Shown piece by piece: positions 5,027 to 35,963 of a stretch of 37,975 bases of DNA. The translations under genes and the position numbers were made by a program. Where the stretch lies: the IMG/VR virus record IMGVR_UViG_2695420398_000011; one strand, written 5' to 3'. This DNA is from a virus (taxonomy: Duplodnaviria; Heunggongvirae; Uroviricota; Caudoviricetes). The notes under the pieces were generated by a model that worked only from the letters and a program-made list of their open reading frames with translations, ran no database searches and was not told where the DNA came from. Positions within the stretch are counted from its first letter, which is position 1. Each line of letters opens with the position of its first letter.

Positions 5027-7822
5027 GTGGCAACGGAGTACATCAGAGACTGGCAACAACCACGCCATGCAGTCGGTGGCGAGGGAACGGGGGAGCCTGT
5101 CCGCCCCTCCCTTCTTTCTTCCTGGCTGGATGCCTACCGGGCAGAGAACGAGCGCCGCCAGGAAATGGCTGATGCGGCGTTCTCCGCTGCACCACTGGGC
5201 AATCTGATTAATAAAAGCCTGGACGCACAGGAAAAACAGGACAAAGCCATCACACTGGCAAGAGAAGCCAGAAAGCAGGCACGCGGTGCGGTGGATGAAG
5301 CCATGGCCTCGCTGCGTCTGCTGCCGTCCTATCTGCGTGATCCGCTTATCCGCCATCTCTCTTTCCTGCACAAAAAACAGGAATCTGGCCACCAGAAAGG
5401 CAAAAAGAACCAGCAGGCGGAACGCTATGCGAGCGGAACCCTGCGCAAAATATTCGAACGTCTGGCCCGCACCGACCGTCGCTGGCTGACTCCGGGTTAT
5501 CGCTCCCTTGCCGGACGTGAACGTCTGGACGATTTGCTGTACCTGCCACAGCTCAACAAGCACCAGATACAGACGCTGGCCGTCATGACGGCGGCAATGT
5601 TCAGCAGCACCTTCGAAAAACTCTGCGATGGCTGTGGCGCGACCGACGGCGAGCTGACCATGGATATAACGCTGAAGGCGTATCAGATGCTGGCCCGCAT
5701 GGCGTTACATCTGCACACAGTGCCGCCGCATTATGACGCACTGACAACAGACAAAGACCGGAAGAACGAACCGGACACGGAACTGCTGCCGGGTGCAATC
5801 CTCCGCCTGACCTGTGCGGACTGGTGGAAACGCAAACTGTGGCTTTTACGTTGCGAATGGAGAGAGGAACAACTCCGCGCTGCCTGTCTAGTTTCCAGAA
5901 AAACATCACCCTATCTGAGTCAGGACGCATTAAGTGAATTTCGCGCACAGCGCGAGAAAACACGCGATTTCCTGAAAAGTTTCATGCTGGAAAATGAAGA
6001 CGGGTTCACGATTGATCTCGAGACAGTGTATTACGCGGGAGTAAGTAACCCGGTCCACCGTAAGGCAGAAATGATGGCCACCATGAAGGGACTGGAACTT
6101 CTGGCCGAAGCCCGTGGCGACAGAGCGGTGTTTCTGACTGTCACCTGCCCGTCAAAATACCACGCTACAACAGAGAACGGTCATCCGAATCCCAAATGGA
6201 ACGGCGCCACCATGCGCGATTCCAGTGATTACCTGGTTAACACTTTTTTTAAGGCGGTCCGCAAAAAACTGAATCGCGACGGCCTGCGCTGGTATGGCAT
6301 CCGCACGGTGGAGCCACACCATGACGGCACCGTGCACTGGCACATGATGGTCTTTGCACATCCTGAAGAAATCGACAGCATCGTGGACATCACCCGTGAT
6401 ATTGCCATTCGCGAAGACCGCCACGAGCTGGGCAATGACATAACTCCGCGCTTTAAGGCAGAGTACGTCGACGGTTCGAAAGGTACGCCGACCAGCTACA
6501 TCGCCACCTACATCGGAAAGAACCTGGACAGCCGCGCCGTGGATGGCATTGACCCGAAAACAGGCAAGCCACGCGTTGATCACGAAACCGGAAAATCAAT
6601 GGCCGAGAGCGTGGAACGCGCCATCGGCTGGGCGCGCCTTCACCGCGTCCGCCAGTTCCAGTTCTTTGGTATCCCCTCCCGTCAGGTATGGCGTGAACTC
6701 CGCCGCCTTGCCAGTCAGATGGCCCGCAACCCGGAAGGTCCACAACGTCTGGAAAATGACGCAATGGATGCGGTACTCGCTGCCGCTGATGCCGGGTGTT
6801 TTGCCACCTACATTGAGAAACAGGGTGGCGTACTTGTTCCACGCAAGGATTACCTGATTCGCACCGCCTACGACCTCGCAGAAGAGCTGAACGATTACGG
6901 CGAGCAAAGCGTACAGATTTACGGGATCTGGTCGCCACAAATCGGGGAATCTTCCCGCGTGTGCACGCACCCGGATAACTGGAAGCTGGTAAGACGTAAA
7001 CCGGAAGCGGAAGACAGCGCCCGCGAAAATGGTTTTGACCTTCAGGGCGGCCCTGCCGCCCCTTGGACTCGTGGCAATAACTGTCCCCGTGTACAGGAAA
7101 CGGACAACAACGGGACAGAACAGCCGGAAGAACGGCCATCACCGTGGCCGCAGCTTCCTGACGGCGTTGACGTGAATGAATGGATGCGCTCACTGAAACT
7201 GCACGAACGCCGGGCGCTGATGCGTTCGCTGCGTGACAAACAGGCAAAAAACAGCAGTGATGAAATGCAGAACTGGACACAGAGCCGCAAACAGCCACGG
7301 CCTTTGCCTGATAACCACGAGTTACTCGCTAAAGAATGGCGGGAGTCTGCTGAATCTCTCGGCCTGCATATCGGTGAACAGCAGATGCAGCACCTGTTAC
7401 GGGGCGGCAGTCTGTACGTTGACGGCAGCATCATTGCACCGCAGGGATTTGAAATTGTACGCAAACCGGATACCCGCCCGGACAGCCGAATCACGCAGCT
7501 CTGGCAGCGCCTGAGCCGCAATCACGGCGTAAGCAGCACGGAGATCCGCCATAACCCGGTCGCCAGCTATCTGGAACAGCTGGGGGCATCAGACCCCGAA
7601 GCCGCCGCACGCCTGGCATCCACACTTCAGCAGGACCAGAACACCATGAAAACCCCCGTTACCGTGCTTTCTGACATGCTGCGCGCCATCCGTGACGCAG
7701 AGCACGCACAGAGAATCAGTGAAACCACTGAACGCGCCCACCGCAAAGCAGACCTGCTGCGGGGGCCTGACCAGTGGAAACAAAAAACAGACAGAAACGG
7801 GATTCACAAATCCCGTAAATGA
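5027..7822 (+). CDS. A: Rolling-circle replication initiation endonuclease (P2 gpA-like, HUH superfamily)
   Basis: 931-aa ORF with probable GTG start; HUH motif HWHMMVFAH; position at end of early operon as in P2/186. Confidence 0.85.
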   Translation: MATEYIRDWQQPRHAVGGEGTGEPVRPSLLSSWLDAYRAENERRQEMADAAFSAAPLGNLINKSLDAQEKQDKAITLAREARKQARGAVDEAMASLRLLPSYLRDPLIRHLSFLHKKQESGHQKGKKNQQAERYASGTLRKIFERLARTDRRWLTPGYRSLAGRERLDDLLYLPQLNKHQIQTLAVMTAAMFSSTFEKLCDGCGATDGELTMDITLKAYQMLARMALHLHTVPPHYDALTTDKDRKNEPDTELLPGAILRLTCADWWKRKLWLLRCEWREEQLRAACLVSRKTSPYLSQDALSEFRAQREKTRDFLKSFMLENEDGFTIDLETVYYAGVSNPVHRKAEMMATMKGLELLAEARGDRAVFLTVTCPSKYHATTENGHPNPKWNGATMRDSSDYLVNTFFKAVRKKLNRDGLRWYGIRTVEPHHDGTVHWHMMVFAHPEEIDSIVDITRDIAIREDRHELGNDITPRFKAEYVDGSKGTPTSYIATYIGKNLDSRAVDGIDPKTGKPRVDHETGKSMAESVERAIGWARLHRVRQFQFFGIPSRQVWRELRRLASQMARNPEGPQRLENDAMDAVLAAADAGCFATYIEKQGGVLVPRKDYLIRTAYDLAEELNDYGEQSVQIYGIWSPQIGESSRVCTHPDNWKLVRRKPEAEDSARENGFDLQGGPAAPWTRGNNCPRVQETDNNGTEQPEERPSPWPQLPDGVDVNEWMRSLKLHERRALMRSLRDKQAKNSSDEMQNWTQSRKQPRPLPDNHELLAKEWRESAESLGLHIGEQQMQHLLRGGSLYVDGSIIAPQGFEIVRKPDTRPDSRITQLWQRLSRNHGVSSTEIRHNPVASYLEQLGASDPEAAARLASTLQQDQNTMKTPVTVLSDMLRAIRDAEHAQRISETTERAHRKADLLRGPDQWKQKTDRNGIHKSRK

Positions 7823-7923
7823 GCAAAAAACGTGCCGCGATATATGAAGCGCGCACAAAACAGGCAAAAGCGGGATTTAAAAATCCTGTAACCGATTAAT
7901 TAATCAACATAAGGAAAAGCGAC

Positions 7924-8883
7924 ATGAAAATTTGTATCGACGACGGCTCCACCAATATCAAGCTGGCATGGACTGAGAACGGCGAACGCCGCAACGCTAT
8001 CAGCCCGAACAGCTTCAAGTCGGAATGGTCTGCGCCGTTCGGTGGCACGCAGCCCGCGAACTACATGCTTGATGGCGTGCGCTATGGTTTTGATCCGGTC
8101 AGCGATCGCTTTGTCCAGACGACCGACACGCAATACCAGTACAGCGATGTGAATGTCATTGCCATTCATCACGCGCTGGTCAAATCAGGCATCACACCAC
8201 AGGAGGTGGATGTGGTTGTCACCCTGCCACTGAGCGAGTATTTCGACACAAACGCACAGCCGGACATGGCCAACATCAACCGCAAAAAAGCGAACGTTAT
8301 GCGCCCGGTGGAGTACCAGAACGGCAAAGCATTCACTATCCGTAACGTACGGGTTATGCCTGAATCTATTCCGGCTGGCTTTAAAGCACTGGCTGACATG
8401 AGTCCGTTTGAATCCCTGCTGATTGTGGATTTAGGCGGAACCACGCTGGATGTAGCAAAGGTTCAGGGACAACTGGCAGGTATCAGCCAGGTGTTTTGCG
8501 ATCCACACGTAGGCGTTTCCCTGATGGCCGATGCAGTACTGTCGGTGATGGCCACTAACGGTATGCGTACCAGTCACCACATCGCCAATACCATTATCGA
8601 ACATCGCCATGATGAAGCCTGGCTGCGCCAGCACATCCATAATGACGCGCATTACGCCAGCCTGATGGCGGTTATTCGTGAAAAGGAAGAAACACTGAAA
8701 CAACGCGTGATCCGCGCACTGGCGGGTTTTTCGGGTTACGGGCGGGTGATGGTTGTCGGTGGCGGGGCGGAGATTGTGGCACCCGCTATCCGCGAAGCCT
8801 GCGGAGTTAATGCGACTTTCATCGCGGACGGGGGGCCACAGTTTGCTCTGGTTAATGGGCTGTACGCAATGGACAAGGAGTAA
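7924..8883 (+). CDS. parM: Actin-like segregation ATPase ParM (StbA family)
   Basis: 319-aa ORF; N-terminus MKICIDDGSTNIKLAW..ISPNSFK..YSDVNVIAIHHAL closely matches plasmid R1 ParM as recalled (MLVFIDDGSTNIKLQW..). Confidence 0.9.
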   Translation: MKICIDDGSTNIKLAWTENGERRNAISPNSFKSEWSAPFGGTQPANYMLDGVRYGFDPVSDRFVQTTDTQYQYSDVNVIAIHHALVKSGITPQEVDVVVTLPLSEYFDTNAQPDMANINRKKANVMRPVEYQNGKAFTIRNVRVMPESIPAGFKALADMSPFESLLIVDLGGTTLDVAKVQGQLAGISQVFCDPHVGVSLMADAVLSVMATNGMRTSHHIANTIIEHRHDEAWLRQHIHNDAHYASLMAVIREKEETLKQRVIRALAGFSGYGRVMVVGGGAEIVAPAIREACGVNATFIADGGPQFALVNGLYAMDKE

Positions 8884-8887
8884 ACCA

Positions 8888-9199
8888 ATGACGACTCCAA
8901 CCAGACGGATAAGTTTCTATCTGAAGCCCGCCGCCGTCAAGAACGAAGGAGAAGCATGCGCCTGGCTGGACAGCCTTACACCAGAAGCCCGCAAAAGCGG
9001 CCAACGCGTGGCTTTTCTGGCCGGGCTGGCACTTCTGAAAATGAATCCGGCAGAGGCTTACCGACTAGCTGCATGGGCTGATGATGAAGCGTTATCAGTG
9101 ACACAAACCAGGACAGAACGCCCCGCATCACAGCCAGTATCAACCGCACAGATAACCAGTCAGATGGCCGGAAATATCCGGGCGTTATTTCCTGAATAA
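8888..9199 (+). CDS. parR: ParR-like centromere-binding adaptor (StbB family)
   Basis: ATG 8888 just after parM stop; ISFYLKPAAV..CAWLDSLTPEARKSGQRVAFLAGLALL and C-terminal IRALFPE parallel R1 ParR (IAFKLNPDVN..TLDSIP..AALTAGLAL..LRSLFPKE). Confidence 0.8.
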   Translation: MTTPTRRISFYLKPAAVKNEGEACAWLDSLTPEARKSGQRVAFLAGLALLKMNPAEAYRLAAWADDEALSVTQTRTERPASQPVSTAQITSQMAGNIRALFPE

Positions 9200-22008: not shown

Positions 22009-23835
22009 ATGAGTACCACAACACGAAAATTTAAAACCATTATCACTGATACTGGTGCCAAAAAATTAGCTCAGGCAGCCGCGCCAGATGGTAATCCTGT
22101 CCGCCTGACTCACATGGCCGTGGGCGACGGTGGCGGCACGTTGCCCACACCAGACAGTAAGCAGACCCGTCTGGTGCATGAGGTGTGGCGACATACTGTT
22201 AATCGCGTCATCCTGGACGCAACACATCAGAACCGCATTATTGCGGAGCTGGTTATTCCTCCTGAAACGGGCGGATTCTGGATCCGGGAAATTGGTGTAT
22301 TTGATGAGCACGGCGATTTAATCGCGGTGGGCAATACTGCCGAAAGTTACAAACCAACCGTTGCCGAGGGGTCCGGACGTGCACAAACATTTCGCACCAT
22401 TCTGACCGTATCCAGCACTGCCACCGTGGCGCTTACCGTGGATAACACCATGGTGATGGCCACAGTGGATTACGTGAATGACAAACTGAAAGAACATGAA
22501 CAGTCACGACGTCACCCGGACGCCTCGCTGACCGCAAAAGGCTTTGTTCAACTCAGTAGCGCCACTAACAGCACGTCTGAAGCACTGGCCGCAACGCCGA
22601 AAGCGGTCAAGACAGCCTATGACCTTGCTAACGGGAAATATACCGCTCAGGACGCCACGACGGCACGAAAAGGAATAGTCCAACTCAGTAGCGCCACTAA
22701 CAGCACGTCTGAAGCACTGGCCGCAACGCCGAAAGCGGTCAAGACAGCCTATGACCTTGCTAACGGGAAATATACCGCACAGGACGCCACGACGGCACGA
22801 AAAGGAATAGTCCAGCTCAGTAGCGTCACTAACAGTGATTCTGAAACGCTTGCCGCGACTCCGAAAGCGGTGAAAGCCGCTAATGACAATGCAAACGGGC
22901 GTGTGCCCTCTGGACGTAAGGTTAATGGCAAATCACTAGCCAATGATGTCAATGTTACATCGCAGGATATTTTTAACGACCAGAGTATTGAGATTGGTGC
23001 AAATCAGAATCTGGATAATTACAAAACACCGGGGCTGTACCATCAGCCATTGAATGCCAATACAAGCGCAGCGCTGAAATACCCGGAGAATTTTGCGGGT
23101 ACACTGGTTGTGCTTAAAAATGCCGGGATAACACAGATTTACTATGTGTATGACACATCCAGAAGCTATACCCGCAGCCAGTACTCAACGGGTGACTGGA
23201 CACCATGGACGCCACAAGATTCATTTCCGGTAGGTGCGGCGATACCGTGGCCTTCTGATTCAGTGCCTACAGGCTATACCGTTATGCAGGGGCAGACTTT
23301 TGATAAAACAGTCTACCCCCTGCTTGCAGTCGCTTATCCGTCTGGTGTGATCCCTGATATGCGTGGCTGGACGATTAAGGGCAAACCCGCCAGTGGTCGG
23401 GCCGTATTATCTCAGGAACAGGACGGCATTAAATCACACTCCCACAGTGCCAGCGCGTCCAGTACGGACTTGGGGACAAAAACCACATCATCATTTGACT
23501 ACGGCACCAAGACGTCCAGTTCATTTAACCATGGCACTAAAACCACGAATAGCGCCGGGGATCATTCACACAATATTCCTGTTGGCAACACTGGCGCTGG
23601 TAATGGTGTTTCGGCTGGTTATAACTCAGGGCTTGGCACTGGAAAAACAAGTAACGCAGGGGGGCACTCTCACACAGTAAATATTGGCGCACACACTCAT
23701 ACGGTAGGAATTGGCGCACACACACACTCCGTTGCGATAGGTTCACACGGGCATACCATCACCGTTAACGCTACGGGTAACGCAGAAAACACCGTAAAAA
23801 ACATCGCATTTAACTATATTGTGAGGCTTGCATGA
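22009..23835 (+). CDS. H: Tail fibre protein (P2 gpH-like), with internal tandem repeats and His-rich tip
   Basis: 608-aa ORF; repeated [19 protein letters not shown] units; C-terminal [35 protein letters not shown] HxH repeats typical of fibre tips. Confidence 0.85.
22540..22900 (+). repeat. Tandem 132-bp in-frame repeats within the tail fibre gene
   Basis: Copies at about 22540-22671 and 22672-22803 are near-identical, followed by a diverged partial third copy. Confidence 0.8.
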
Positions 23836-24734
23836 TTACGCTCATTCTTTCTGCACCAGTAACAGAAATGGCTGAAGCATTTAAGCAGGTATTTGCAAAT
23901 GCAGATAGTGTGAATATTGTCGGAAAGCCATTTGAAACAATCAGAGAATTTGACTGCATGGTAAGTGCGGCAAATAGTTTCGGCTTGATGGATGGTGGCG
24001 TTGATGCCGCCATTACCGCATTCTTCGGTACTCAGTTACAGTCCCGCGTTCAGAATCATATTCTTCGTGAATATCTCGGCGAACAGCCTGTAGGTTCTGC
24101 ATTTGTCATTGAAACGGGGCATAATCATCACCCCTGGCTGGTACATGCGCCAACAATGCGTGTTCCGTTGACAATTGACGGAACAGACGCTGTATATAAC
24201 GCAACCTGGGCCGCTCTGCTTGCCATCTTTCAGCACAATAAAAACGCAACGACAGACATGAAAATAAAAACAGTGGTATTCCCTGCAATGGGGGCCGGAT
24301 GTGGTCAGGTGCCGTTTGAAAGTGTTGCCCGACAGATGAAGCAGGCATGGGATAACTTTAATAAAAAAACAGAATCAATTAACTGGGAATACGCACAATC
24401 TCGCCAGTCGGCAGTATTTGGCACATATGCATACTGTCCGGGTAATTCCGTTTGCCGTTATGCGGATACTAAATATATTGGATGCGGCGATTATCGGACG
24501 TGTTGCTCTCGTTCCGGGCAACTCTGTATTAACCCTGAACATCAGGCTGATGATGTACTGATACAACATCAGGCTAATAACCGTTTTCGCCCTGGTTCGC
24601 ATATACACCGGATTAATCCAGAAAATCCCGTAGGTAATGTCACCTCTGGCGCACATAGCCACGGAAGTAGCATCGTTATTGGTACTCCTACCCATACGCT
24701 CAATAAACAATATTCTGTCTCTGATATTAAGTAG
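23832..24734 (+). CDS. Macro-domain protein with Cys/His-rich fibre-tip-like C-terminus
   Basis: 300-aa ORF, start overlaps H stop; [17 protein letters not shown] and [14 protein letters not shown] resemble macro-domain motifs (NAAN..GGGVDGAI, FPAISTG) as recalled; C-terminus [17 protein letters not shown] resembles HxH fibre tips. Confidence 0.6.
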
Positions 24735-24736
24735 AG

Positions 24737-25321
24737 GTGAACATGGATTTCAGAATGAGTGAACAATCACGGACCATAAAAATTTATAACCTGCTGGCCG
24801 GAACTAATGAATTTATTGGGGAAGGTGATGCATACATTCCACCTCATACAGGTCTGCCTGCAAACAGTACCGATATTGCACCACCAGATATTCCGGCAGG
24901 CTTCGTGGCTGTTTTCAACAGTGATGAGGCATCGTGGCATCTCGTTGAAGACCATCGGGGTAAAACGGTTTATGACGTGGCATCAGGGGACGCGTTATTT
25001 ATTTCTGAACTCGGTCCGTTACCGGAAAATGTTACCTGGTTGTCGCCGGATGGAGAGTGTCAGAAGTGGAACGGCACATCCTGGGTGAAAGATGCAGAAG
25101 CAGAAAAACTGTTTCGGGTACGGGAGGCAGAAGAAACAAAAAACAGCCTGATGCAGGTAGCCAGTGAGCATATTGCGCCACTTCAGGATGCCGTAGATTT
25201 GGATATTGCGACGGAGGAAGAGGCATCGTTACTGGCTGCATGGAAGACATATAGGGTATTGTTGAATCGTGTTGATACAACAGTAGCAGCGGATGTTGAG
25301 TGGCCAGTCGCCCCGCAATAA
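24737..25321 (+). CDS. G: Tail fibre assembly chaperone (P2 gpG/Tfa-like)
   Basis: 194-aa ORF; N-terminal region ([55 protein letters not shown]) matches enterobacterial Tfa proteins as recalled. Confidence 0.85.
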
Positions 25322-25364
25322 AAAGAAAAAGCCATCGACAGAAATATCGATGGCTTTATGTACT

Positions 25365-25970
25365 CTATTTATACAATACAACACCACTCTTTTTAGTTAT
25401 ATATGTGCAGTTTGATGGTATATCTTTATTTATAAAAGACATTGCACCTATTTTTACATTATCCCCAATTTTACGTGACAATCCAATGATGCAACAATTA
25501 GCTCCGATATCAACGTTACTACCAATTTTCACTCTTGAACCAGGCATGTCACCATCTATCTGTCCAATGGTAGTATTCTGTCGTAATACCAGATTTTCAC
25601 CCGCATCAACAGCAAAATGAACAACAATTCCAGCATGATGGGGAATTGTTAACCCTTTTCCAATATTTGCTCCCAATCCTATTTCACAACCAAATTTGTT
25701 AATTATTTTACTGTTTAACTTTTTGGCTGCTTTCTTATGTAATTTATTACCATTAATATACATTTCGTTAGCCAACCGCCACCAGAAAAGGAAATTCCGG
25801 TTACGCTGCTTTTTCTCTCTTAAAAGCCTCCAGATATCCATACGTTTCCGCCGAATTACTTCATGTTTCCAGAAGTTTTTTAAATTAGTAGAGTTCCCAA
25901 ATAAAACAAAGTGAATTGCCATTAAGTAAGACAGCACGAAAATCTCCTTAATTATTATTTCAGACCACAC
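25365..25970 (-). CDS. Hexapeptide-repeat acyltransferase (serine O-acetyltransferase / CysE-WcaB-like)
   Basis: 201-aa ORF; left-handed beta-helix repeats (IGLGANIGKG..IGSNVDIGANCCIIG..IGDNVKIGAMSFI); strongly AT-rich; at the position of P2 Z/fun. Confidence 0.7.
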   Translation of the reverse strand: MWSEIIIKEIFVLSYLMAIHFVLFGNSTNLKNFWKHEVIRRKRMDIWRLLREKKQRNRNFLFWWRLANEMYINGNKLHKKAAKKLNSKIINKFGCEIGLGANIGKGLTIPHHAGIVVHFAVDAGENLVLRQNTTIGQIDGDMPGSRVKIGSNVDIGANCCIIGLSRKIGDNVKIGAMSFINKDIPSNCTYITKKSGVVLYK

Positions 25971-33041: not shown

Positions 33042-33509
33042 TTATTGTTTAATGGCGTTTTCTATCCATGTCGCCAAATTGTTCTTGATATCGCTATAAG
33101 CGTCGTTAAAGTTAGGTTCATATACGAGTGGTTTAATTACTCGATCGCCTCGCTTAAATGTAAATTGGTCGAAAGGATTCGGTCCTTTTGTCCCATAGCC
33201 GTTACGAGGGCATTTCAGTCGATGAATATAAATACCCACCACAGCCTTACCCTCTTTCCAGGCTCTTTCGATCTCATACTTGACCCATGGGCGATTAGCC
33301 GTTTGACTCCCGATCAGTACTACTAAGCAGGATTTGCCATTTAAGCTCTGATTAATCCAATTCTTCACGCCCTGCTCAGTTCGTTTAATTTGTTCCCAAG
33401 TATTTGGGCTAACCGGTTCATCCCCCTCCAGCACTCCCATGTTACGAATCTGCTGTACCCGCATAACATCGTTATCAAAGTGAAAGCTGTAAAATACCTT
33501 ACGTTTCAT
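33042..33509 (-). CDS. thsB: Thoeris ThsB (TIR-like domain protein)
   Basis: 155 aa; KVFYSFHFDND...CLVVLIGSQTANRPWVKYEIERA...GKAVVGIYIH...KGPNPFD parallels Bacillus ThsB (RVFFSFHYQD..CVLIGSQTFNRRWVRYEI..KGPNPFD) as recalled. Confidence 0.85.
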   Translation of the reverse strand: MKRKVFYSFHFDNDVMRVQQIRNMGVLEGDEPVSPNTWEQIKRTEQGVKNWINQSLNGKSCLVVLIGSQTANRPWVKYEIERAWKEGKAVVGIYIHRLKCPRNGYGTKGPNPFDQFTFKRGDRVIKPLVYEPNFNDAYSDIKNNLATWIENAIKQ

Positions 33510-33511
33510 AT

Positions 33512-34978
33512 CTAACCTCCTAGTTTCTTTAAAATTTCTAAAACTTTCATTTCGATATTTGCCCGATTAGCAGAGAGATCTGCAAGCTGAGCAACTTCCT
33601 TTTCCAACCAAGGGTACCGGACAAAATGTTTACTTGGATCCGTCAGCATCTCGTCAGCTAGTTCCTTGGCCATATAACCAGTGACGCCAAGTGGAAGCAC
33701 GACAACCCCTGTTTCCTGAGCAATTTGAAACTCCCTTCGGACCCCATCAGCATTAACGATTCGACCATCATGGAGTTTATTCCCAAAAAGGAATATAGCG
33801 ATTCCAGAAAGACCAATCATACGCTGCCGATATTCGTCCCATAGCTCGCTCAGGGCTTTATCGTTTGATGAGTGTTGAGGGAATGGCCGCATGATAAGTT
33901 GCTCTTCTGAGTACTTATCAGGCTTAGAATAAATGGCTTCAAGAGCTCCGTTGATGACCGCACTACCAATACCCCATCCAAACCCATTGACAACTCGATA
34001 GCCATTCTTCACCAAAGATGACGAAAGTATGTGTACAAAGTTTAGTGCTTCCTGTTTGTCCCAAGCGCCATACTCTTCTGCACTACCAGATATAAATATG
34101 GTCTTCTTGAGGAAGCGACTCTCAATCTCTTTCAATATAAGTGGAATATCATCGTACTCGTTTACTAATACAGCCTGAATGCCAAAACGGAGCAAATCGC
34201 GAATATGATGTTCTTGCCTACGCTGCCTATACATAGCGCCAGCTTCATCTTCATTTCCTTGCGGCAGAGAGGGTTCCTTACGAAGAAAGCAGTAGTGTCT
34301 ACGACGATGCTTCTCCGGAACATGCAATCGGCTCAATATGTAATCAAGATTAGGATCAGTAAAACTGAAGCCAATAAATAAGAATGTCTTAGAAATCAAA
34401 TCTCCACTCAATGCTGTAACAAACCCCTCATGGGTCTTGTAGTACTGCTCATACTGAGCTTTATAAAGTATGGCGTCACCTGGCGAGCTAACATCACCAT
34501 GCATTTTGTAAACAACAGCATCTCGTTTAGGACGAGTGGAAATAAGATCATCGGTTCTGCGTTTAATATCTGCGACACGGTAGTTTTCTTTGAGACTATC
34601 TTCAATCAAAGTGTCATAGTTGGTTGTCCAATAAGTTCTAATGGGTAGTCTAGCAAGGATTTTATGGGCTTCGGAAGGTTCCGCTTGCTCCGAGAATTCC
34701 TCTAGGATTTTTCTAGCTAAACCAGTTGAGCTGTTGTTCTTGTTGACATGGTATTGTGCAACCGAAATTAAGTCGTGCTCTAGCTCAACAGAAAGGCCTA
34801 ATTCTTCAGCAATTTCACGCAGCAGTTCACTCCAATTAACGAAGCCGCTGGTTCTAGATAGGCCCGCACCAGCAAAAACGGCGGCAACCCCTTCTTCGAG
34901 ATCCTTCACATAAGTCCTGATAAAAGCTTCAACTTCAGCCGAAAACTGAACACTCATATTTTTAGACAATCCGGTCAA
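33512..34978 (-). CDS. thsA: Thoeris ThsA (N-terminal SIR2 domain, C-terminal SLOG domain)
   Basis: 488 aa; SIR2 hallmarks FAGAGLS, TTNYD, MHGD; C-terminal FISGSAEEYG...GFGWGIGSAVINGALE typical of SLOG; directly upstream of thsB on the same strand; AT-rich. Confidence 0.85.
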   Translation of the reverse strand: MTGLSKNMSVQFSAEVEAFIRTYVKDLEEGVAAVFAGAGLSRTSGFVNWSELLREIAEELGLSVELEHDLISVAQYHVNKNNSSTGLARKILEEFSEQAEPSEAHKILARLPIRTYWTTNYDTLIEDSLKENYRVADIKRRTDDLISTRPKRDAVVYKMHGDVSSPGDAILYKAQYEQYYKTHEGFVTALSGDLISKTFLFIGFSFTDPNLDYILSRLHVPEKHRRRHYCFLRKEPSLPQGNEDEAGAMYRQRRQEHHIRDLLRFGIQAVLVNEYDDIPLILKEIESRFLKKTIFISGSAEEYGAWDKQEALNFVHILSSSLVKNGYRVVNGFGWGIGSAVINGALEAIYSKPDKYSEEQLIMRPFPQHSSNDKALSELWDEYRQRMIGLSGIAIFLFGNKLHDGRIVNADGVRREFQIAQETGVVVLPLGVTGYMAKELADEMLTDPSKHFVRYPWLEKEVAQLADLSANRANIEMKVLEILKKLGG

Positions 34979-35719: not shown

Positions 35720-35956
35720 ATGTGGAAAGGCCCCGGAAAAACATCTCTGTTTAACCGAGGCCCTAACCGCATTACCTTGACAAGTGAAAGGTTAGCGCCT
35801 CTCCGGAAAAGGAGCAAGTGCTATGTCGCAAAAATCGCTTACGGCCATCACGTTCTGCGTGACGGCAATCCTCATCATCTGGATGCTGCACGGTTCGCTG
35901 TGCGAAATACGGATGAGCTTCTGGGGAGCGGAGTTTGCGGCGTTCTTACAGTGTAA
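35720..35956 (+). CDS. mok-like overlapping reading frame of the hok-like locus
   Basis: 78-aa ORF in a different frame that starts upstream of and spans the hok-like ORF, as in hok/mok/sok loci. Confidence 0.35.
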   Translation: MWKGPGKTSLFNRGPNRITLTSERLAPLRKRSKCYVAKIAYGHHVLRDGNPHHLDAARFAVRNTDELLGSGVCGVLTV

Positions 35957-35963
35957 GCAGTAA
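35823..35963 (+). CDS. Hok/Gef-family type I toxin (small membrane peptide)
   Basis: 46-aa ORF MSQKSLTAITFCVTAILIIWMLHGSLCEIRMSFWGAEFAAFLQCKQ; TM helix plus conserved SLCEI(R) and AAF motifs of Hok proteins; structured 5' leader; 3' hairpin at about 35975-35995. Confidence 0.7.
   Translation: MSQKSLTAITFCVTAILIIWMLHGSLCEIRMSFWGAEFAAFLQCKQ

Follow-up and report, generated by a model that had tools for sequence, protein, structure and literature searches.

Macro domains are central in the conflicts around NAD+ and ADP-ribose, and phage copies have only now been tied to specific defences, as in the case of the T4 macrodomain AdfM (Tk.4), a factor that counteracts DarTG2 (bioRxiv 10.1101/2025.11.20.689424) and that, like the macrodomains of DarG, removes the ADP-ribosylation of DNA produced by DarT. 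Phage Macro genes located among morphogenesis genes have also been predicted to counter ADP-ribose (ADPr)-based immunity (Iyer et al. 2022, PMC9503650). Among cellular enzymes, the closest known counterparts are yeast Ymx7 (YMR087W), an ADP-ribose-1''-monophosphatase, and the MacroD-type hydrolases. Here we analyse a gene of this kind in the IMG/VR record IMGVR_UViG_2695420398_000011, a stretch of 37,975 nucleotides (the window) that corresponds to a P2-like prophage of E. coli. The gene (23832..24734, + strand, 903 bp, 300 amino acids (aa) plus stop; WP_032197584.1, phrog_2613) is 100% identical to that of strain H3 (NZ_CP010167) and lies between the gpH-like tail fibre gene and the tail-fibre assembly chaperone gene (tfa). 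Its product combines a Ymx7-type macro domain with a four-cysteine segment and a His-rich tail of the type found in fibre tips.

The macro domain comprises residues 1-195 (23832..24416, + strand). The Pfam family PF01661 was matched by residues 44-169 over its full profile (1-118) with 67.9 bits, for a cut-off of 22 (E=9.7e-19), and the same family was matched by 15 of the 15 family members tested; in PHROGs, the protein belongs to phrog_2613, of function unknown, with an E of 7e-146 over residues 1-271. An AlphaFold2 (AF2) model, for which an alignment of 66 diverse sequences was used as input, showed a predicted local distance difference test (pLDDT) value above 94 at residues 1-199 and the three-layer alpha/beta/alpha architecture of macro folds. 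When this model was compared by Foldseek, 209 matches in the Protein Data Bank (PDB) were found at E<=1e-3, the best 50 of them being macro domains or designs made from one, with yeast Ymx7 at the top (1njr, E=1.4e-11 over 198 columns), followed by TTHA0132, macroH2A, OiMacroD, macro 1 of PARP9/14, DarG, MacroD2 and YmdB. The profile of the family also selected 1njr when compared with the PDB (E=5.6e-15, positions 2-179), with the N-terminal extension included in the match. The macro-like motifs that the original prediction had read in the translated sequence are, therefore, real, and structure prediction returned a macro fold and not the non-macro fold that it had named as a refutation.

The pocket residues are preserved as well. 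The first loop, N48-SFGLMD-G55-G56-V57-D58, reproduces the N-x6-GG[VLI]D signature of MacroD-type proteins, and the second pocket motif is G154-A-G-C-G158; N48, G56 and D58 are kept in at least 90% of the 66 diverse sequences and G158 is invariant, N48 matching the asparagine N30 of OiMacroD. Judged from its sequence, this is a conserved macro domain of the Ymx7/MacroD type with an intact pocket. Ymx7 (1njr, 1txz, 1ty8) is its best solved relative both by fold and by profile, and both proteins have an N-terminal beta-alpha extension preceding the core macro fold and the motifs VS-x-x-NS-[FY]-G...GG-x-D and PG/A-x-G-x-G-x-VP, although their identity is around 21% and Ymx7 has insertions, lacks the Cys/His tail and is a cellular enzyme. 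MacroD-type hydrolases (YmdB, OiMacroD, human MacroD1/2, TTHA0132) share the fold and the N-x6-GG-[VLI]-D motif, in such a way that the spacing of G55 and D58 matches that of G37 and D40 of OiMacroD, which are mutated in PDB entries 5lau and 5lcc. By contrast, the similarity to them is weak (E from 1e-5 to 1e-3) and far below every NCBIfam equivalog cut-off, and the second loop reads GAGCG in place of G-[VI]-[YF]-G. As the best equivalog score, that of PRK00431, was 52.9 bits for a cut-off of 246, the protein is a homologue and not an equivalog of YmdB-type proteins; Pfam Macro_2 also gave a weak match (23.3 bits) below its cut-off of 27. Membership in DarG or in a defence system was considered and rejected (12.1 bits for an NCBIfam cut-off of 250; PADLOC DarG, E=0.007 over 39 residues), and a T4-type Tk.4 homologue appeared only at rank 24 in a search of viral folds (BFVD). 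Thus, AdfM and DarG share with our protein the macro domain, and AdfM is also encoded by a phage, but they form a distant subfamily, and the AdfM gene lies outside fibre cassettes, with no Cys/His tail described for its product.

The C-terminal extension (residues 196-300) consists of two parts. The first is a four-cysteine segment (residues 202-232; 24435..24527, + strand) in which C202, C225 and C232 are invariant and C208 is present in at least 90% of the sequences, with a beta-hairpin at residues 211-225 predicted with low to moderate confidence in the two AF2 models that were made; this segment is possibly a metal site. The second is a His-rich tail (residues 239-300; 24546..24731, + strand) with GxHxH repeats at residues 255-291 approximately, these being GSHIH, GAHSH 18 residues later and GTPTH (GAHTH in other alleles), with a spacing between units of roughly 9 or 18 residues. 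The tail resembles the tip of the neighbouring fibre (BLASTP E=0.01), and its alignment by hhalign to fibre-tip repeats gave a probability of 78% and an E of 1.8e-5 over 25 columns, whereas Pfam PF03335 (Phage_fiber) was matched in 2 of 15 members without significance (E>=0.76). Consequently, the likeness to the HxH repeats of the fibre tip proposed in the original prediction stands at the level of the motif and not at that of the Pfam family, and the 50 terminal residues described there as rich in Cys, His and Gly are indeed His-rich, but the conserved cysteines are located further upstream. The tail was unmodelled as a monomer, with pLDDT below 50 at residues 239-300 in the first AF2 run and at residues 234-300 in the second, which was made with 88 close homologues and gave a worse result (mean pLDDT of 61).

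The obvious term of comparison for this tail is provided by the needles of T4 gp37, lambda Stf and P2 H, which are assisted by the chaperones gp38, Tfa and G, respectively, and in which GxHxH units are likewise encoded directly upstream of a Tfa-type gene. In the tip of T4 gp37, the HxH motifs bind iron (PMC11705849). Compared with these needles, the macro protein has only 2-4 repeats, with no collar, no head domain and no 11-residue ending. In the homologue from Izhakiella, an unrelated Cys-rich linker is followed once more by HxH repeats, and this conservation despite the replacement of the linker argues that the His repeats themselves matter. By analogy with the fibres, the most plausible role of the tail would be to assemble into a small oligomer that depends on metal, or to dock on the Tfa/fibre system. 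Nothing pointed to a general cargo-adaptor module shared with other enzymes, as all the tblastn matches of the C-terminal module in plasmids were within the same macro gene; a search against an index of 5.8 billion proteins gave 2 fragments and is uninformative, since known members of the family were missed too.

Regarding its expression, the gene is tightly joined to its neighbours. The gpH-like fibre gene (22009..23835, + strand, 608 aa; Pfam Phage_tail_fib, three copies of Phage_fiber_2, and Collar) ends in a tip with a collar domain, GxHxH needle repeats and a conserved 11-residue ending, and a GAGG Shine-Dalgarno sequence (23823-23826) is contained within its final codons, followed by the macro ATG (23832-23834) overlapping the fibre TGA (23833-23835) in the sequence GAGGCTTGCATGA, in such a way that the whole coupling junction spans 23823..23835 (+ strand). 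On the other side, the TAG of the macro gene is followed by GAGGTGAAC and by the ATG of tfa (24743..25321, + strand, lambda Tfa/P2 G type; Caudo_TAP E=3.8e-40, start as in PGAP), with a spacing of 8 nucleotides and a Shine-Dalgarno sequence of its own (GAGGTG, 24734-24739). This corresponds exactly to the 300-aa open reading frame (ORF), overlapped with H and inserted between H and the chaperone gene, that had been described from the letters of the window. No sigma-70-like promoter above chance was found within the macro gene, and the first convincing terminator is located 3' of tfa, at 25328-25357, supporting that the gene is read within the late operon V-W-J-I-H-(macro)-G. These signals place the macro gene on one transcript with the fibre and chaperone genes and couple its translation to theirs. 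Fusion to H by frameshifting was considered; inspection by eye revealed no slippery site at the junction, and the Shine-Dalgarno sequence and the ATG explain the expression.

The conservation of this arrangement was studied in 91 enterobacterial loci from E. coli chromosomes and phage-plasmids, 80 IMG/VR contigs, Erwinia, Izhakiella and phage Chuche. The order fibre tip, macro gene and tfa, the overlap between the fibre stop and the macro ATG, and an upstream fibre with a tip of the lambda Stf/T4 gp37 type were found in the 91 loci, and the same 11-residue ending, or a variant of it differing in one residue, was present in all of the 84 upstream fibres that could be read. The junction GC(A/G)TGATTA is kept across related loci, and the distance between the macro gene and tfa ranges from -13 to +25 nucleotides in most of them and from 73 to 176 in five. 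The recurrence between H and tfa that the original prediction had proposed to survey was, thus, seen in every locus studied, and it extends over P2-like myoviruses (the window, SEN4/SEN5), lambdoid siphoviruses with side fibres (Gifsy-1 and the ST131 prophages, for instance) and P1-like phage-plasmids.

The gene is, at the same time, optional. In strain RM6927, a cassette very similar to that of the window (around 84% aa identity in the tip, 95% in Tfa, 98.5% in the adjacent acetyltransferase, and around 91% in DNA) carries no macro gene, and tfa overlaps the fibre stop, which indicates that the macro gene is precisely slotted and not needed to build the fibre. In loci devoid of the macro gene, the same fibre 3' end lies directly before tfa, and in our reading of the sequence the GAGG of the fibre end would then serve tfa.

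The selection acting on the gene was estimated from the ratio of nonsynonymous to synonymous substitutions (dN/dS, medians of pairwise Nei-Gojobori values). Residues 1-195 of the macro protein gave 0.11 (0.11-0.12 over two runs) and the tail 0.34, while the fibre tip had a value of 0.17 and tfa one of 0.16; in a separate run, the ratio was 0.21 in the Cys segment and 0.42 in the HxH segment. These values support that both the macro part and the tail are under purifying selection, the tail less so, and, together with the 1714 homologues of the protein detected at E<=1e-3, that the gene is not a chance ORF. The pairs not being independent, the correlations between dN values are descriptive: 0.95 between the N- and C-terminal parts of the macro protein, 0.70-0.73 between the macro protein and tfa, and 0.16 between the macro protein and the fibre tip. 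This pattern suggests that the gene moves as a unit with tfa, the tip being swapped at the conserved 11-residue junction. Between loci whose tips share only 58-70% identity with that of the window, the identity of the macro part reaches 96-98%. The same data make the second receptor-binding protein proposed in the original prediction unlikely, having in mind also that the pocket is like that of cytoplasmic homologues. By its position, right after a distal fibre gene, the small protein resembles the gp38 adhesin of T2 and S16-type phages, which binds the fibre tip; unlike this adhesin, its macro part is conserved and not hypervariable, it does not co-vary with the tip, and no similarity to gp38 was found in any search.

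The low GC content noted in the original prediction was confirmed by measurement (0.453, and 0.385 at third codon positions), although it is not a peculiarity of this gene: the distal half of H (0.487) and tfa (0.480) are also below the baseplate genes (0.56-0.59), so that low GC is a property of the whole cassette that is strongest in the macro gene.

The origin of the protein was approached through an exhaustive search of 1.84 billion representatives, which returned 2341 matches, nearly all of them macro proteins of around 195-215 aa that cover residues 1-195 only. Stand-alone chromosomal copies, around 50% identical, were found in Chloroflexi, cyanobacteria, Acidobacteria and Bacteroidota, and the nearest stand-alone copy (64% identity, 207 aa) is an accessory gene of a lambda-like phage, beside ParB-like and methyltransferase genes and with the terminase downstream. 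The Cys/His extension was detected only in proteins of enterobacterial tail loci, and on no other domain in the searches made. These data suggest that the macro enzyme was recruited whole and that the tail is an addition specific to the tail locus. From Escherichia to Salmonella, Erwinia and Izhakiella, homologues persist with 65-70% identity and intact motifs. Of 5426 complete E. coli genomes, 128 carry the gene and 4592 match at least part of a 3-kb cassette query. Carriers include Gifsy-1 of Salmonella Typhimurium LT2, prophages of E. coli ST131 and O157:H7, and the phages Chuche and SEN4/SEN5.

Some irregular members of the family were also found. Frameshifted or truncated alleles (L125, 3904-4632; L010, 858-1655; P0157) have the Cys/His tail lost or scrambled, P0157 consisting of a 101-aa ORF with an out-of-frame start followed by the tail reading frame, which suggests that the gene is occasionally decaying. 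A ParM fused to the macro protein (Logan protein P0004) was judged an assembly chimera. Distant Ymx7-like macro proteins of the jumbo phages Noxifer, phiRSL1, FBKp24, PA1C and RTH11 are labelled "tail protein" or "tail assembly-like", labels that may derive from the tail-locus family of enterobacteria and not from evidence.

Concerning the function, we tentatively favour a late-expressed cytoplasmic protein that hydrolyses or binds ADP-ribose derivatives and that travels as accessory cargo of the fibre tip and tfa cassette, blunting host defence. The protein would be made with the fibre and the chaperone, its coupling to H and tfa pointing to late action. Given its type and its intact pocket, the domain would most likely cleave off a group at position 1'' or 2'' in an ADP-ribose derivative, which should be cytoplasmic, as the pocket is conserved as in cytoplasmic homologues; candidate substrates are ADP-ribose-1''-phosphate, O-acetyl-ADP-ribose or an ADP-ribosyl mark on protein or nucleic acid. 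The purpose would be to blunt NAD+/ADP-ribose-based immunity late in infection, as suggested by the precedents of T4 AdfM, of the Macro genes in morphogenesis clusters and of the activation of Thoeris set by fibres, which is treated below. The four-cysteine segment and the GxHxH tail may act as a metal-dependent module for oligomerisation or docking, like the trimeric iron-binding needles of fibre tips, its folding being possibly aided by the adjacent Tfa.

Several facts weigh against this proposal. Counter-defence genes are not usually expressed late, except when their product is packaged. The cellular proteins of the Ymx7-like family have the look of housekeeping enzymes, and the phage copy could perform a metabolic clean-up; moreover, the protein is only distantly related to DarG and T4 Tk.4. 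The constant position may reflect one ancestral insertion, spread by cassette exchange and without functional meaning, and a physical association with the fibre or the virion would explain the fibre-like tail and the fixed location within the fibre cassette just as well. The existence of frameshifted and truncated alleles also counts against the proposal, as does the lack of co-occurrence with a particular defence system at the hotspot between gpD and ogr of three P2-like relatives, and no paper with a functional study of this gene family was found in the literature searches made.

Association with the virion is rather unlikely in our view, but it is the alternative that best survives. The GxHxH tail would form a trimer with the help of Tfa and would hold three macro domains on the fibre, on the complex of Tfa with the fibre or on the baseplate. 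The enzyme would thus be carried by the particle and work in the following infection, on the surface of the cell or once delivered. This would fit with the maintenance of fibre-like repeats even when the linker is replaced, with a tail that is unmodelled as a monomer, as expected if it folds only in an oligomer, and with the strict coupling to H and tfa and the co-variation with tfa. In addition, the packaging of Macro proteins from morphogenesis loci has been predicted in the same study (Iyer et al. 2022, PMC9503650), and the macro gene resembles the Macro, NADAR and Nudix genes considered there, mostly of contractile-tailed phages, in that it lies in a late structural operon. However, what is proposed there is packaging in the head, near terminase, portal and MuF genes, and not in fibres; text searches in that article gave no mention of tail fibres, and our lambdoid (siphovirus) carriers run against its bias to myoviruses (PMC9503650). 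Furthermore, proteins bound to fibres stay extracellular, a setting with no known NAD-derived substrates, although the pocket shows the same conservation as that of cytoplasmic homologues, and the co-variation with the tip that a fibre-bound protein could show was not observed. No virion proteomics was found in the literature searched, and the names "phage tail protein" and "macro domain-containing protein" alternate for near-identical sequences, so the former looks like annotation by neighbourhood.

Another possibility arises from Thoeris. In type II Thoeris, a TIR-based system, side tail fibres and their chaperones determine the strength of activation, the signal is His-ADPR, and it is through a macro domain that the effector recognises it (bioRxiv 10.64898/2026.06.04.730250). 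If the fibre-chaperone complex were sensed by TIR/NAD-based systems, a macro protein made at the same time could destroy or sponge the ADP-ribose-derived signal, and its fibre-like tail would bring it to that same complex. We regard this as quite improbable, although the gene is exactly between fibre and chaperone and has an intact pocket: the analogy comes from an unrelated phage-host pair, the acceptance of His-ADPR or gcADPR by a Ymx7-type pocket is an assumption of this explanation, and no report of a macro domain as an anti-Thoeris factor was found in the literature searched.

The window itself does encode Thoeris, as had been noted, and it is of type I, with ThsB (TIR, 155 aa; 33042-33509, - strand) and ThsA (SIR2-SLOG, 481 aa; 33512-34957, - strand) located between gpD and ogr. 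However, in three other P2-like prophages with macro genes 96.5-99.8% identical, the same hotspot contains a GAPS6-type pair, a 221-aa hypothetical gene or nothing, in such a way that Thoeris was absent from it in the three relatives. The functional link between both elements that had been speculated on receives, therefore, no support from co-occurrence, and the macro gene and Thoeris appear as independent cargo.

A bolder version, in our opinion a long shot, would combine the ideas above in a miniature fibre, with a Tfa-assembled iron-binding GxHxH trimer as shaft and ADP-ribose-processing heads that erase or sponge the alarm (His-ADPR, gcADPR or ADP-ribosyl marks) at its source. Its synthesis would keep pace with that of the fibre-chaperone complex because sensors of the NAD+/TIR type would detect this complex. 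If true, it would be an antidote linked to the trigger and moving between phages along with it.

A role as accessory of fibre assembly, in which the protein would aid Tfa in the folding or quality control of tips, with the macro domain as a binding module and not as an enzyme, seems highly improbable. It would account for the position, the coupling and the co-variation with tfa, but tips and Tfa proteins as similar as those of RM6927 do without the macro gene, which is found in a small number of the genomes that match parts of the cassette, and the catalytic-type motif is kept as in free-living homologues. Finally, a functionless passenger or a decaying recombination remnant, as also contemplated in the original prediction, is hardly credible, for despite a GC content below that of the phage backbone, a presence/absence polymorphism and occasional broken alleles, it conflicts with the dN/dS values of both parts, with the correlation between them, with the retention from Escherichia to Izhakiella with intact motifs and with the conserved overlap of start and stop.

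Other features of the cassette and of the prophage were also recorded. In H, residues 171-300 approximately consist of three tandem repeats of around 44 residues (Pfam Phage_fiber_2), two of them identical in sequence, which suggests a recent duplication. Beyond tfa, a hexapeptide-repeat acetyltransferase gene (25365-25970, - strand, GC 0.343; serine acetyltransferase/WcaB-like; phrog_2154, of function unknown) has a promoter-like site at 26017-25989 and shares with tfa the terminator at 25328-25357; its position is that of the P2 Z/fun moron, and it may be a conversion gene that modifies surface polysaccharides. A specific link between this gene and the macro gene was considered and rejected, as the acetyltransferase adjoins tfa in P2-like prophages whether the macro gene is there or not, and the version beside tfa in P1-like phage-plasmids is only 36-40% identical. 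In the lambdoid prophage L003, the fibre-macro-tfa cassette is followed by a recombinase gene (invertase-like; 7585-8175, - strand), as in invertible fibre segments. At the end of the prophage, just downstream of ogr, there is a gene for a toxin of the Hok/Gef family (around 35823-35963, + strand; 31992-32132 in L001), which was also found in the related prophages examined, and the gene for the replication endonuclease is immediately followed by genes for ParM-like plasmid segregation and partitioning/stability (around 7924-9199, + strand; 4093-5368 in L001).

Part of this was already on record: the protein is called "macro domain-containing protein" in RefSeq, its Gifsy-1 counterpart STM2588.1n is annotated as "contains pfam01661", PHROGs includes it as phrog_2613, and macro genes located among those for morphogenesis are, as a general idea, already in the literature (PMC9503650). 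What is new is the fusion of the Ymx7-type macro domain to the four-cysteine segment and the fibre-type HxH tail, as well as its strict residence between fibre and chaperone genes across P2-like, lambdoid and P1-like elements, with its linkage to tfa. We know of no described precedent for an enzyme fused to fibre-type HxH repeats, and this fusion bears on whether Tfa-type chaperones assemble clients other than fibres and on whether such enzymes ride on virions. The family is common in lineages of medical importance, such as S. Typhimurium LT2 through Gifsy-1 and E. coli ST131 and O157:H7 through their prophages, and the isolated phages Chuche and SEN4/SEN5 make the gene amenable to ordinary genetics. 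As the gene resides in the most freely exchanged cassette of these phages, any counter-defence activity that it has would spread along with the determinants of host range.

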